Shown piece after piece: positions 3,021 through 7,802 of a stretch of 17,585 nt of DNA; the first letter of the stretch is position 1; each line of letters starts with the position of its first letter. This stretch comes from a virus. The notes beneath the pieces are model-generated. The model saw nothing but the letters and a program-made list of their open reading frames with translations. It was not told the origin of the DNA and searched no databases. The stretch lies in UHGV virus genome UHGV-0376136; one strand, given 5' to 3'. Position numbers and translations under genes: made by a program.

Positions 3021-3095
3021 GTCAATATTTCCTAAGCCGATTTGTTGATACCGAAGCCCTGACTGTTCCCGCAGTTGGGGCTTCACTGTTTTGAT
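3021..3095 (+). ncRNA. sar: Candidate sar-like antisense RNA covering the ant ribosome-binding site
   Basis: Plus-strand -10 TATACT (3009..3014) with weak -35 GTGAAA (2986..2991, 17-bp spacer) predicts a start near 3021, antisense to the ant start region. A plus-strand terminator-like hairpin follows. Arrangement analogous to P22 sar as I recall it; ends approximate. Confidence 0.3.
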
Positions 3096-3498: not shown

Positions 3499-3750
3499 AT
3501 GTCTGATCGTAAGTACAAAAACCCTCAAGTGAATCTGAGGCTTCCTGTAGAGATAAAGGAACGTCTTATTGAACTGGCTGAGGCTAATTCTCGTTCATTA
3601 AATGCTGAGATGGTCGCGGCACTTGAAGCATGGACCGAAAAAAATAAACACATTCAAGCACTAGACCTTGCAACTATAGCATCACGATTGATAGATCTTG
3701 AACACGATGTTGAGACGCTAAAGACCATGTATGCTAAGGATGAAAAATAA
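3499..3750 (+). CDS. mnt: Mnt-like ribbon-helix-helix repressor, 83 aa
   Basis: ATG 3499 with AGGA RBS 7 nt upstream; N-terminus NPQVNLRLPVEIKERLIELAEANSRSLNAEMVAALEAW fits the RHH beta-strand plus two helices; same length as P22 Mnt; divergent from arc across the operator region. Confidence 0.7.
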   Translation: MSDRKYKNPQVNLRLPVEIKERLIELAEANSRSLNAEMVAALEAWTEKNKHIQALDLATIASRLIDLEHDVETLKTMYAKDEK

Positions 3751-4286
3751 TGCTGCACACAATTCACTTCTTATGCCCTGTTAACACTGCCACTGTTGGG
3801 CAACTTCAGAACCACTGTCTCACCGCATTATCTCAAGGCGCAACTGAATTAAATATCCATATATCAAGTCAGGGAGGGGAAACTGCCGCTGGCTTTACTG
3901 CGTATAACTTTCTTAAGTCACTCCCTGTTACCGTTAGAACTCACAACATAAGCAATGTTGAATCCATAGCTAATATCGTTTTCCTGGCTGGCTCAGAACG
4001 TTTCGCAAACCCATTATCAAGATTCCTGTTACATCCTCTATTATGGGGCTTTGCCACCCCAGCCGCCGACCATGCCAGATTGAGAGAGTACGGGAAATGC
4101 CTCGATAACGATCTTGATCGCTTCGTTGAGACGTTCAATATCGACATCGGAACCCATATTAGGTGGGCATCCCTGATAGCAGACTCGACCATTTTGGATG
4201 CTAACAAGGCTCTTGAGCATGGCATAATTAATTCCATAAAAACTGCAAGGCTGGTATCCAATCAGGCAAACTGGTGGGTTGTTTGA
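3750..4286 (+). CDS. ClpP-like (S14-type, ClpP-fold) serine protease homologue, N-terminally truncated relative to ClpP, 178 aa
   Basis: Start ATG overlaps the mnt stop (TAATG at 3748..3752). By-eye alignment to E. coli ClpP: ISSQGGETAAGFTAY vs INSPGGVITAGMSIY; NVESIANIVFLAG vs QAASMGAFLLTAG (Ser aligned); PLSRFLLHP vs PNSRVMIHQP (His aligned); KALEHGIINSI vs EAVEYGLVDSI. Confidence 0.75.
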   Translation: MLHTIHFLCPVNTATVGQLQNHCLTALSQGATELNIHISSQGGETAAGFTAYNFLKSLPVTVRTHNISNVESIANIVFLAGSERFANPLSRFLLHPLLWGFATPAADHARLREYGKCLDNDLDRFVETFNIDIGTHIRWASLIADSTILDANKALEHGIINSIKTARLVSNQANWWVV

Positions 4287-4341: not shown

Positions 4342-5310
4342 TTAGATTTCTGGTTTCATTCTTCCGAAAACCTTTTCTATTCCTTTTTCGTATTCTTCTC
4401 TTGTCTCACTCATCGCTGCGACACCAAGAAGCTTACCGATATGCTGACGCAAAGCCTTGACACCAATTTCAGAAAGGAACAGATGCAACTTATCAGATTG
4501 TTTTCCGTTCTCGTCTCGGCTGGCTCGAATCTGTTCAAGGATTTTACCTTTACTCTTTGCTAGCGGGGTATATATCTGCATGTTGGTTAGCTGCCCAAAA
4601 CGAATAGGCCGTCCTTTCTCTGGCCTATTCAGGCCGTACAGTCGATACCACTCCTCGTATAGCTCATCTGGAAATTCCTTTTCATATTGACGAGCCTCTT
4701 CACGAACAAACGCTTTGAACTCGTCAATGACAGCCTGAACTTCTGGACGATAACCAGCAAGCGCATACGCAACCCCCTTAATTCCCGCCTTAGCGGAGGC
4801 ATTAATAAGTCTCTGTGCTGCGGCGGCTGCCTTTAACCGTGATTGTGGTAGATCGTCATTATCTTTGGCTTCTATTAGTGCCCTACCAATATCAACAATT
4901 GCTGTAATGTCATAACCTAACGCTTGATGAACGGTTTTAGACTTCGAAGTAAGTTGAAATTTATAGGGATTTTCCATTTTTCGCTGCAATTCTAGATCTC
5001 GGTATTTGCTCATATACTGAGCGCCAAGCAGTTGATCTAAATCCCTGGCATGTTCACCAATCCCTAGCAACTGAGATAATCCAGTTTTCGTAACAACGAC
5101 AGTTTTCGACTCGTCATCCAGTACATAACATTCAGCATCAATGCCAAAATCATCTAAAAAGTTACCACGATGAGTTGCCCTGAGAATCTTACTTTTCCAT
5201 CTTGCAGCAGCTGCTTTCTTTGCTATTTCAGAACGCTGCTCTTTAGTCAGCGACTTTGCGCGAGCGATCCCGCCCTTAGCTTTCCCTTCGCCACTTTTCT
5301 TTTCAGTCAT
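4342..5310 (-). CDS. Hypothetical protein, 322 aa, with basic Lys/Ala-rich N-terminal putative DNA-binding segment (possibly P63C-family; unverified)
   Basis: Track ORF 4342..5373 starts at a TTG with no RBS; ATG at 5310 is preceded by AAAGGTG. N-terminus MTEKKSGEGKAKGGIARAKSLTKEQRSEIAKKAAAARWKSKILRATHRGNF... Strong upstream promoter and operator repeats. Confidence 0.7.
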   Translation of the reverse strand: MTEKKSGEGKAKGGIARAKSLTKEQRSEIAKKAAAARWKSKILRATHRGNFLDDFGIDAECYVLDDESKTVVVTKTGLSQLLGIGEHARDLDQLLGAQYMSKYRDLELQRKMENPYKFQLTSKSKTVHQALGYDITAIVDIGRALIEAKDNDDLPQSRLKAAAAAQRLINASAKAGIKGVAYALAGYRPEVQAVIDEFKAFVREEARQYEKEFPDELYEEWYRLYGLNRPEKGRPIRFGQLTNMQIYTPLAKSKGKILEQIRASRDENGKQSDKLHLFLSEIGVKALRQHIGKLLGVAAMSETREEYEKGIEKVFGRMKPEI

Positions 5311-5402
5311 AATGCAAGCACCTTTGTTGTGATGTATGCTTGCATTATATGCACTGTACACACATACAAGCAAGCATAAAACTAAAACAAAATGCTTGCA
5401 TT
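5311..5402. promoter_or_regulatory. Promoter for the 322-aa gene embedded in four copies of an ATGCTTGC-core operator motif (two inverted pairs)
   Basis: Minus-strand -10 TATAAT (plus 5344..5349), 18-bp spacer, -35 TTGCTT (plus 5368..5373). Motif copies: 5311..5320 (aatgcaagca), 5337..5346 (tgcttgcatt), 5370..5377 (gcaagcat), 5392..5402 (atgcttgcatt). Confidence 0.6.
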
Positions 5403-5466
5403 ACAACCGCGCTGCTCCAACTACACATTATCATCTGGTATCCTGCTCAAAACTAAGGAGGTTGGT

Positions 5467-5787
5467 GTGTATATATCGCTATCTACCATTTTTTTCATCT
5501 GCTTAGCTATTTGGCTTTTAAGAATATGGCAGGATTGCTCTGTCAGCCATGCTGCTGCGGTGAGAAATAAAAACGCCCTCATAAAAGAAGCTGAAAACGT
5601 TGTCTTATCAATGGATCACCTTTCATGGACCGAGATGACTACAGGGCAACAAGAGGTTTATGAGTGTGCGATTGAGCGGTTAAGGCTGCTTAAGTCGTAC
5701 AAAAAGAACCACGCACCCGACTCATTCCCATTCCTGAAAGAATGGCCGAGATGGTATGACCCGAAAAAAGCAACCATCAACCGCTAA
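5467..5787 (+). CDS. Small single-pass membrane protein, 106 aa from GTG (131 aa if the ATG at 5392 is used)
   Basis: AAGGAGG (5455..5461) 5 nt upstream of GTG 5467; product begins VYISLSTIFFICLAIWLLRIW (hydrophobic helix) followed by a charged soluble domain. Ends 8 nt from the convergent gp16 stop. Confidence 0.5.
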   Translation: MYISLSTIFFICLAIWLLRIWQDCSVSHAAAVRNKNALIKEAENVVLSMDHLSWTEMTTGQQEVYECAIERLRLLKSYKKNHAPDSFPFLKEWPRWYDPKKATINR

Positions 5788-5795
5788 CCAACTTT

Positions 5796-7802
5796 TTACT
5801 GCTGGGCTTTCTCACTTGAAGCCTGAATTAGAGGTGTAAGAGTTTCAGATACCCGCCTGATCGCTCTATCATAAGCAGTACTTCCTTTTGGTGTGTTTGC
5901 TAACTTTAGTAATGCGTTCCTCATCGCGCGTGACTCATAGCCCCTGCCAGCCATACCGATACCAGCTCCAACTGCCGCAACTTTTGCAAACATTGGATTT
6001 GTAACAGATGCAAGAGCTGTTATCAGCGCTGCTGGACCAGCTACCATTTGCCCTGTTAGTGGGCTTGCGGCAGCAGTAGCTGCCTGTCTAGTGGAATCAA
6101 GATATTTCATTATCCCATCAAGCTGTTTCCCATGCTCTCCTCTGAAGAACGTCTCAGCCTGCTTCCGATTCCTTTTCATTTCATTAATAAACTTCTCAAC
6201 GCTAAGCTTTCCTGAATCGCTTGTCGCCTTATCCATTGCACGCTGAACAAGTGCTGCTCTAGCATTTTGACGCCCACTATCATCAAGCAATCGATAAAGT
6301 TGCGCCCTTTCCGCTGGGCTTTGGCTGAATACTAGTTTAGTGACATCTTCTGGCGTTGTTTTACCACTCTGAATAGCTTTTTGGACACGTGTATTGCTCA
6401 TCATGTCGTTGAACTTTGCCCAAGAACGATCAACACGCAACATGTTTTGCGCTTCCTTCGCACCTAGTTTTGCGCCAACCGCTTTTTTCATGTCTGTTGT
6501 GTATGCGTTATAAACAGACTGCGCAGCTTTCTCCAGCGTATCTCTATCGACCTCGTCAGGTGCTGCCATAAAGCGCTTACGTAAGTTTGTACGGTTTTCT
6601 CTAGCTAATTGCAGGTTATTTGGACCGCTGGTGATGTCATTTCTAAACTGTTGAAGGACAGAAACAGCTGAGCGGTCTTGCGATACTCCTGGGCGAGTTA
6701 ACTTGGAAATCTGCTCATCAATTGCTTTCACTGTTCCAGTGATGTCAACAGGAGTATCCCCCATCAAACTGATGATCCTGTCGTACCGCTTGCCAGCAGC
6801 CTGAATAAATTGCTGCTGACCACGAGTAGCTGATTGGTAAAGTTGTGCGTCAGATATTCCACCAACATTATCGCTAAATGTTCTAACTAAATCTTCCCTG
6901 GCCTTTTGCTGTGCATTTCTTATCCCACCTGTTCCGGCTATTGGGATTCGCTCAGCCATAGCTCGTGCTTGCTTACCAATATTTGTTCCCGGTTCCACAA
7001 GATCTGTTGTCATCAGTGGCAAGTTGTTCTGCTTGGCAAAGTCAATCTGAGCTTGTTTTTCAGGAGCAATCTTACCCATAGCAGAACGAGACACTGCGCT
7101 TGCGGTGTTTTCTACACCCTTCAGTACCCCACCAAGACCAGCAGAAATTGCAGTTTGAACTGGATTAACATTCTCACCGCCAGCGATCTTTGTGGCACCC
7201 TGTAAAGCTAAATCAGTAGCGCCTGATTTTAGTGTTGCACCTACAACAGACGCAGCTCTACCTGCTGGAGTGAATGCAAGAGCATTTGCCAAGAATGACG
7301 TTATATCCTGCGGTGACAAACCAGGCTTGTTAAGTGCATATTCCCCTGAAGGAAGGGTGACTATGGAATTTCCCTTCTCATCCTTCCGGATTTTCCCGCC
7401 AATACTTTGCAGTATTTTCTCCTGTGAAGCGTCGGAACCAAATAGCTGCCCCAATCCAGCACGCAGCGCATCAGTGCTTAAGCTATTAAGCTCTGGAGCA
7501 GACCCAACATTTTGCAGTCTCTCCATTTCTGGTGTCATTCGGCTTTCACCGGTAACGGCATCGCGCATTGCAGCACCTAAAACAGCCCCTTGCTCAGCAG
7601 ATCGATCTAGTCCTTCCTTCTGCTGAGTGGCAAGCTGTGCATATCCTGATGCAAGTGAGTTGTCTGCTGGCGATTGCTGAACACCTTGTTGTGTTGGTGC
7701 TGACTGACCAGCAAAATACTCATCAATGGCGGTGCCAATATCTTCGGTGCTCGTACCATCAGGAAAGGTAAATGTCTTACCGTTTGCAGTTACTTTCATC
7801 AT
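5796..7802 (-). CDS. 16: Ejection (E) protein, P22 gp16 analogue, 668 aa
   Basis: Last gene of the late operon before the accessory region; 4-nt start overlap with the upstream gene; long Gly/Ala/Gln-rich protein; assigned by synteny with P22 order 7-20-16. Confidence 0.8.

Follow-up and report, generated by a model that had tools for sequence, protein, structure and literature searches.

The 17,585-nt stretch of DNA analysed here, UHGV virus genome UHGV-0376136 (hereafter the window), covers the late and immI regions of an E. coli prophage of the P22-like group (Lederbergvirus). At 5467–5787 on the plus strand it holds a 321-nt gene, with a GTG start and a TAA stop (5785–5787), that encodes a membrane protein of 106 residues and converges on a gp16-type ejection-protein gene (5796–7802, minus strand, 668 residues). 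An earlier note, made from the sequence alone, had proposed that this small protein is a superinfection-exclusion factor blocking DNA entry. We found that the small gene occupies the slot of sieA, the superinfection-exclusion gene of phage P22, behind the sieA leader, and that it is constantly inherited with one type of gp16; on these grounds its product may well be a new and unrelated kind of exclusion protein. The reading that we tentatively favour is that of an inner-membrane superinfection-exclusion factor, expressed in lysogens, SieA-like but unrelated to SieA, which would act on the conduit formed with gp16.

Slot, leader and linkage to gp16

In P22, sieA lies between gene 16 and gene 9, converges on gene 16 across a 22-nt gap and has its own promoter. 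The position and orientation of the small gene are those of this slot, and the likeness extends to the sequences that precede the start codon. The leader TGGTATCCTGCTCAAAACTAAGGAGGTTGGT (5436–5466, plus strand), which makes up the approximately 31 nt before the GTG, differs by one base from the P22 sieA leader and is also found in front of gene 14 of epsilon34, and GTG is the start codon of both the small gene and P22 sieA. Within this leader, the ribosome-binding site noticed earlier stands up well: an AAGGAGG Shine-Dalgarno sequence lies at 5455–5461 on the plus strand, five nt before the GTG. P22 sieA and gene 14 of epsilon34 have the same motif in their leaders, and it is kept in most loci of the family, a few of which have the variants AAGGAGA, AAAGAGG or ATAGGAGG. 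The window holds two copies of AAGGAGG, the other being at 2159 on the plus strand, antisense inside ant, and this number is at chance level (1.86 expected). It is thus for its position and its conservation across loci, and not for its mere presence, that the copy at 5455 is taken as real.

The likeness goes further at five loci (L018, L019, L022, L024 and L027), where a homologue of the small gene is preceded by P22 sieA upstream sequence over at least 150 nt. As the sieA upstream region is retained up to the start codon, the boundary of the cassette falls at the start codon, and the small gene has thus taken the place of sieA as an alternative allele. For exclusion in P22, sieA in single copy with 85 bp of this upstream sequence is enough (Leavitt et al. 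2024, PMC10883804). In the window, TGGTATCCT (5436–5444, plus strand) resembles an extended -10 element and is a putative promoter core. Of 11 contexts in which the upstream open reading frame is divergent, 10 have this element, against 3 of 12 in which it is co-directional (Fisher p=0.003, computed on loci that are phylogenetically non-independent).

The start of the small gene can be placed from its relatives. The reading frame is open from 5392 to 5787, with an in-frame GTG at 5467, and the homologues align with conservation everywhere 3′ of this GTG and with unrelated sequence 5′ of it, so that the start is the GTG or very near it. The identical 321-nt coding sequence was called by the Prokaryotic Genome Annotation Pipeline (PGAP; WP_000275950.1) and is found in the record of phage N7 (ORF14). 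Phages N7 and HZ41 have both the small gene and the gp16 of the window. A longer product of 131 residues, starting at the ATG at 5392, was considered and rejected, the N-terminal extensions of the database homologues being mutually unrelated and merely translated upstream DNA.

The linkage with gp16 is confined to one part of a mosaic gene. The N-terminal third of gp16 (7113–7802, minus strand) is about 83% identical in nucleotides to that of the E. coli S88 prophage and others, whereas the C-terminal two-thirds (residues 231–668; 5799–7112, minus strand) are of a distinct type. This C-terminal module is always co-inherited with the small gene; the N-terminal third recombines independently of it and is 80–100% identical among close relatives. 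Among 5,426 complete E. coli genomes, the gp16 C-terminal segment 5796–7100 and the small gene were found in an identical set of 60 records (57 genomes, about 1%), while the first 100 nt or so of gp16 match 481 genomes, so that a P22-like gp16 of some kind is present in about 481. Across the 22 loci in which the small protein is at least 98% identical, the gp16 C-terminal part is 97.5–99.8% identical, compared with 80–100% for the N-terminal third, 49–98% for gp20 and 58–90% for gp7. At greater distances the two identities fall together, with values (small protein/gp16 C-terminal part, in %) of 99/97–100, 66/82, 72/68, 45/35, 41/37 and 39/35. Finally, when the last 300 residues of the gp16 beside each slot gene were clustered, every slot gene was found with its own gp16 cluster: SieA type A in 31 of 31 cases, the small-protein family in 28 of 28 (plus one divergent pair) and the proteins similar to HkcB of phage HK620 in 22 of 22.

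The co-inherited module also contains the region of gp16 that matters for SieA in P22, where substitutions that escape SieA affect G532 and P546 (PMC10883804). In the alignment, their counterparts in the window gp16 are the conserved residues G585 and P604, 65–85 residues from the C terminus. The two residues bound the only hydrophobic segment of the protein, which is Gly/Ala-rich (residues 585–604; 5991–6050, minus strand).

The arrangement of the stops is as first described. The small-gene stop is separated from the gp16 stop (5796–5798) by 8 nt (5788–5795), and a scan of 5250–6000 revealed no intrinsic-terminator-like site on either strand. In relatives, the junction ranges from an 11-nt overlap to a 17-nt gap. 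On the minus strand, the window carries in order the genes for portal, scaffold, coat, gp4, gp10, needle and a gp14-like protein, then gp7, gp20 and the gp16-type ejection protein, after which come an ‘ant moron’ of about 3.7 kb and the tailspike gene (<1–2041, same strand as gp16), which runs off the left end of the window. To include the tailspike gene, transcription from PLate has to cross the ‘ant moron’ (PMC2629481). Since the tailspike could no longer be expressed if transcription ended after gp16, the lack of a terminator is ordinary for this phage group and not a trait of the small gene. During lytic growth the small gene would thus be transcribed antisense, and in a lysogen its own transcript would have to run antisense into gp16.

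The protein, its family and its genomic niches

The small protein has a sole hydrophobic segment, at about residues 3–21 (5473–5529, plus strand), for which the 19-residue Kyte-Doolittle mean reaches the maximum of the protein, 2.05. In the AlphaFold2 model (14-sequence alignment; mean predicted local distance difference test score of 88), this segment falls within a helix spanning residues 5–48, which extends beyond the membrane; it is followed by a second helix (59–77) and by an ordered, extended C-terminal tail that holds the invariant W93, P94 and W96. The earlier description of one N-terminal transmembrane helix followed by about 80 soluble residues agrees with both analyses, with about 85 soluble residues, helical in the model. 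A hydrophobic 18-mer (H 1.8–2.8) is present in all 15 family members scored. Its N-terminal flank contains 0–1 lysine or arginine (0 in 13 of the 15 members) and the 15 residues that follow it contain 2–4, so that by the positive-inside rule the protein is predicted to lie N-out and C-in, with its soluble domain in the cytoplasm. The motifs of the family are a histidine about six residues past the helix, KN-LI-EAE, SW-M, Y-CA-ERL-L, KKNHAP and WP-W. A cleavable signal peptide was set aside, given the lack of a positive n-region in 13 of 15 members, post-helix residues that are not A-x-A-like across the family, and the continuous helix 5–48 of the model.

The small gene is a real gene under purifying selection. 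We compared 16 distinct alleles, found in phage N7, in E. coli chromosomes, in contigs of IMG/VR and in metagenomes. In the clade of the window, nearly all differences are synonymous, with nonsynonymous divergence (dN) of 0–0.004 against synonymous divergence (dS) of 0.015–0.08 and a dN/dS of 0–0.26; with and within more divergent clades, and counting only comparisons without saturated dS, dN/dS is 0.04–0.10. Length and architecture are kept in homologues down to about 36% identity, and the motifs are conserved among members that are 36–46% identical. At the same time, the small protein diverges faster than its neighbours. At L064 and L065 the cI repressor is 84–85% identical to that of phage mEp043 and the adjacent small protein only 34–38%, and the N-terminal third of gp16 is 90–97% identical where the small protein is 66%. 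Such a pattern would be typical of arms-race genes.

The protein belongs to phrog_10450, labelled as of unknown function in PHROGs (E 3.2e-52, residues 1–103 on profile positions 1–98 of 98), which is the only library family that matches it. A ribonucleotide reductase beta line from NCBIfam (E 0.08, 12 bits for a cut-off of 320) was rejected as noise. Searched exhaustively with the profile, 1.84 billion representative proteins yielded 12 true representatives of the family, of 55–150 residues, the full-length ones having 97–114; a further match, P0023 (676 residues, seven matched stretches), is a eukaryote-type leucine-rich-repeat protein and was discarded as a false positive. No true relative of the small gene was found among GTDB species representatives searched with a closer alignment. 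The protein is annotated as hypothetical everywhere, and we found no functional account in the literature for hkcB, mEp043 gp49, WP_000275950 or phrog_10450. Many of the E. coli carriers are genomes from cattle and humans whose size is that of STEC (E. coli strains that make Shiga toxin).

Members of the family occupy two genomic niches. In the first, the gene converges on gp16 in P22-like prophages; this is the case at 35 of the 36 loci with readable flanks, with small-protein identities from 100% to about 36%. The exception, P0017 (L123, 5001–5345; 42% identity), lies in a rearranged and decayed P22-like prophage remnant, where it adjoins genes for the type VI secretion system (T6SS) protein Hcp and for a Tlde1-domain protein instead of gp16; it is possibly a domesticated copy. 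On its upstream side, the gene is found in at least nine highly variable contexts. Often it closes the plus-strand mnt operon, and at some loci, including the window, it has a divergent gene upstream. In a divergent P22-like prophage (L124, 4641–4988; L125, 971–1318), a Rap1a-domain gene, with a T6SS-immunity-like fold, separates mnt from the small gene within one operon.

In the second niche, the gene stands on the same strand as a cI-type repressor gene and 4–18 nt downstream of it, in 33 of 33 loci (mEp043 with its gp49, all 31 IMG/VR loci of the mEp043 gp49-like subgroup, and P0019). In the immunity operon of lambda, rexAB occupies this position. The mEp043 gp49 protein is a true homologue of the small protein (38% identity over 58 residues, BLASTP E 7e-13), with the same length and architecture, and its group was also recovered by the profile search (P0019, P0021, P0022 and P0025). 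The group differs from the window gene in its location after cI, in siphoviruses as well as in P22-like phages, and in a C-terminal WP-NP motif in place of EWP-W. Both niches are positions known from P22 and lambda biology for gene expression in lysogens, and the family may be expressed there likewise. Two contigs carry more than one of these genes: IMGVR_UViG_2563366933_000009 has both a gp16-adjacent and a cI-adjacent paralogue (L028 and L036), and IMGVR_UViG_3300045988_067434 has a cI-adjacent paralogue together with hkcB (L061 and L067). This co-residence suggests that the paralogues, and hkcB, are not redundant in specificity.

Proposed exclusion and the competing explanations

From these observations we infer the topology of the small protein, its expression in lysogens, its exclusion function and its gp16 target, as follows. 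In the window prophage, the sieA-type leader (5436–5466) would drive the small gene, while in other prophages read-through from the mnt operon would do so; the cI-operon position of the distant homologues, by analogy with lambda, supports expression in lysogens. The uncharged N terminus and the single helix (about residues 3–21) would insert N-out, leaving the helical domain of about 85 residues facing the cytoplasm. The protein would then stop the DNA of P22-like phages from crossing the cytoplasmic membrane by disturbing the ejection-protein conduit, the likeliest point of attack being the membrane-inserting C-terminal part of the adjacently encoded gp16 type. That the gene stands exactly in place of sieA, with the sieA leader in front of it, speaks for such a block at entry.

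The argument that the earlier note drew from the locus is even stronger than could be told from the sequence alone. Slot, leader, ribosome-binding site and GTG start are shared with sieA, and exclusion at this locus is indeed known. Nevertheless, the idea that small single-pass proteins are the usual form of exclusion factor there could not be established, since SieA itself, an inner-membrane protein, has 162–164 residues and three predicted transmembrane helices (four in types B and C; PMC10883804), compared with 106 residues and one helix for the small protein, and bears no detectable relationship to it. By direct reading, the small protein also lacks the RYP and the FNK of the SieA motif FxRYPxEAxxFNK (PMC10883804), which appears as GRYPGEANGFNK in P22 SieA. 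Judged on its sequence, the small protein is not a member of the SieA family. What the two have in common is that both are small membrane proteins of P22-like prophages, for which exclusion is proven in the case of SieA and predicted in the case of the small protein.

The closest parallel at the same place is HkcB of HK620, or gp14 of epsilon34 (107 residues), whose gene shares the slot, orientation and leader of the small gene and, like it, begins with the codons GTG TAT. Like the small protein, HkcB-like proteins have an uncharged N terminus and one N-terminal helix followed by a helical tail of about 85 residues. Their genes, too, adjoin the gp16 stop, here that of an HK620-type gp16 with a 0-nt gap, and are bound to their own gp16 C-terminal type. 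The proteins differ in sequence, and their coiled-coil-like tail lacks the CA-ERL and WP motifs of the small protein. HkcB-like genes are found at L007 (3528–3851), L008 (3532–3855) and L067–L088, as an alternative cassette in the sieA slot. The function of HkcB and epsilon34 gp14 is given as unknown (PMC2629481), and the HK620-type gp16 is only partly sensitive to SieA (PMC10883804). The HkcB-like protein is a candidate exclusion protein for a gp16 type that partly escapes SieA.

Outside this locus, parallels of two kinds can be drawn. Injection-blocking superinfection-exclusion proteins form a class that includes SieA, HK97 gp15 and T4 Imm. HK97 gp15 is reported to block DNA entry at the inner membrane, with escape mapping to the tape-measure protein. 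In its build, this protein of 62 residues resembles the small protein, with an uncharged or acidic N terminus, one N-terminal helix, a basic flank and a short helical tail. Its gene is a moron just upstream of the tape-measure gene, hence beside a gene for the DNA conduit, as the small gene is beside gp16. The differences lie in length (62 against 106 residues), in orientation (co-directional against convergent) and in the conduit concerned (siphovirus tape measure against gp16, gp20 and gp7). HK97 gp15, cited as a superinfection-exclusion protein (Cumby et al. 2012, cited in PMC11436027), is by analogy a proven precedent for an exclusion protein of this build.

The second parallel concerns the organisation of the locus. 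Immunity genes of pore-forming colicins converge on the 3′ end of the toxin gene, encode a small inner-membrane product that recognises the C-terminal membrane-inserting domain of the toxin, and are inherited with it as a cognate pair. Colicin immunity proteins, which reportedly have three to four helices, differ in this respect from the single-helix small protein, which matched none of the Pfam colicin-immunity families (E<=0.01). They also act against a secreted toxin, whereas the small protein would protect against incoming phage conduits.

Several results weigh against an exclusion factor aimed at gp16. No similarity ties the small protein to a known exclusion protein: with P22 SieA as comparison sequence (SieA types A–C span 160–200 residues), BLASTP gave no alignment at E<=100 and hhalign of the family profile a probability of 0.7%, and hhalign probabilities were likewise low against HK97 gp15 (0.6%) and the HkcB-like proteins (2.5%). 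Beyond phrog_10450, no family was found in Pfam (E<=0.01), in NCBIfam or among the PADLOC-DB 2.0 defence models (E<=0.1). A profile search of the PDB sequences with the family gave 0 matches, and Foldseek of the AlphaFold2 model against PDB and BFVD returned no match with E<1, though a helical hairpin holds little fold information. The promoter in the window is a putative one, as a consensus promoter scan found none at the leader. For the cytoplasmic position predicted for the soluble domain, the positive-inside rule is the one basis, and the literature gave no account of expression or phenotype for any family member. Furthermore, the linkage between the small gene and gp16 would fit a functional coupling without proving one. 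Between types, the C termini of gp16 differ too much to recombine by homology, and there is no conserved linker between the stops, so that adjacency alone could predict the linkage. Lastly, mEp043 is a siphovirus with a tape measure and without gp16, and since it has a cI-adjacent homologue, a gp16 carried by the same phage cannot be a requirement for the entire family.

This last point invites the comparison with lambda rex. The small protein could be another prophage defence component, i.e. a membrane-anchored abortive-infection sensor or effector that works after entry and possibly against unrelated phages. A whole subgroup of the family, including that gp16-less siphovirus, does sit at the rexAB position after cI, the soluble domain is predicted to be cytoplasmic, and the presence of both paralogues, or of a cI-adjacent paralogue and hkcB, on one contig suggests that they do not do the same thing. 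We nevertheless regard a Rex-like role as unlikely: no PADLOC defence model matches, no partner other than gp16 or cI is consistently co-inherited, a protein made of one helix and a helical domain of about 85 residues shows no enzymatic or pore-like features, and the exact substitution for sieA behind its leader favours a block at entry. The gene might also have nothing to do with phage defence and serve lysogenic conversion, by changing the envelope physiology of the host, its tolerance of stress or its fitness in an animal. The ‘ant moron’ is a cargo region of very variable content (PMC2629481), which in the window includes ClpP-like and P63C-domain genes and elsewhere a Rap1a-domain gene; the copy kept by T6SS genes in the decayed remnant at L123 is what would be expected of a gene useful to the host, and many carriers are STEC-sized genomes of cattle and human origin. 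Against this, nothing ties the small protein to a host pathway, the family is confined to two phage regulatory or entry niches, and its strict association with a gp16 type and with the sieA leader would be a coincidence, so that conversion, too, has in our opinion a low probability.

The same co-inheritance can be turned the other way. If the protein served the lytic cycle of its own phage, either as an immunity or chaperone factor against the membrane activity of newly made cognate gp16 or as a helper of injection, perfect co-inheritance with the gp16 C-terminal module and an arrangement that recalls colicin immunity would be accounted for. Such a role is very unlikely, considering that the small gene is antisense to the late operon and is traversed by antiterminated PLate transcription, which disfavours late expression, that homologues reside in the cI operons of phages without gp16, and that P22-like phages with SieA, HkcB or an empty slot assemble and inject normally (PMC10883804). 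One could even imagine that the protein is incidental and that convergent transcription into gene 16 acts in the lysogen by antisense or by interference with the late operon: the gap is of 8 nt, no terminator is found and the transcript must enter gp16 antisense. This idea is hardly credible, as it is contradicted by the strong purifying selection on the amino-acid sequence, by motifs conserved among members that are only 36–46% identical, and by the cI-operon homologues, which converge on nothing. An entry block directed at the gp16 conduit thus remains the reading that we retain, with the reserve expressed above.

Neighbouring features and significance

Upstream of the small gene, the window differs from most related loci. 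An inserted P63C-domain gene (4342–5310, minus strand; phrog_2384) separates the small gene from the mnt operon and so cuts it off from mnt-operon read-through; among the other related loci the P63C-domain gene was found only at L002, with 77% identity. Between the divergent P63C-domain and small genes lie four copies of a motif of 11–12 nt (TAATGCAAGCA / TGCTTGCATTA) in alternating orientation, at 5309–5320, 5337–5348, 5370–5377 (partial) and 5392–5403, the first of which overlaps the likely P63C start codon (5308–5310). These copies look like operator-like sites for some regulator, and the region 5309–5403 is nearly identical at L002. On the other side of the P63C-domain gene, a gene for an Mnt-like Arc-family repressor (3499–3750, plus strand) is directly followed by a gene for a 178-residue protein with a ClpP-like serine-protease fold (3750–4286; Pfam CLP_protease, E 4e-12). 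The latter is an unusual cargo for immI: it is far shorter than the head-maturation protease families that it matches, and no similar gene was present in the related loci compared. Over the 5′ end of ant lies the sar antisense RNA (3022–3087, plus strand; Rfam RF00262, 64 bits for a gathering score of 43), and the P22-type arc/sar/ant control circuit appears intact. As for the tailspike, its first 115 residues, the head-binding domain, are 64–74% identical to those of P22-like tailspikes, and its receptor-binding part is unmatched in five others compared.

To our knowledge, SieA is the only characterised blocker of the trans-envelope DNA conduit of P22-like phages. The sieA gene is carried by only 22 of 66 sequenced P22-like phages, and the filling of the slot in the others was not discussed; the authors who described SieA also raised the question of how it would recognise very divergent gp16 and gp20 (PMC10883804). 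If the proposed function holds, the novelty would lie in an exclusion factor that takes the place of SieA at its locus with no homology to it, exclusion at the locus itself being already known. Such a second exclusion protein would be much simpler than SieA, made of a single helix and a small domain with a confident AlphaFold2 model, in the same slot and associated with a defined gp16 type. It would offer a tractable handle on the part of the conduit that is vulnerable at the inner membrane, and would account for the content of the slot where sieA is lacking.

The comparison of the three slot genes allows a wider proposal, which we consider possible but rather doubtful at this stage. The slot at the 3′ end of gene 16 could be a cognate blocker/conduit locus, in which at least three unrelated families of membrane proteins stand behind one leader, each with its own gp16 type and with exclusion tuned to it. 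Were this the case, gp16 types that largely escape SieA, for example that of HK620, would carry a dedicated blocker, and an arms race would drive the diversification of gp16 and gp20; the small-protein family would also have been recruited to the lambdoid cI immunity operon as a second, portable exclusion gene. The pattern of three unrelated cassettes that share one leader and are each bound to a gp16 type is the most interesting and the most testable outcome of this work, as the pairing of slot family and gp16 type is a directly testable prediction on the co-evolution of injection machinery and exclusion. For E. coli, the small gene, if it acts as we propose, could limit the susceptibility of its carriers to P22-like phages.

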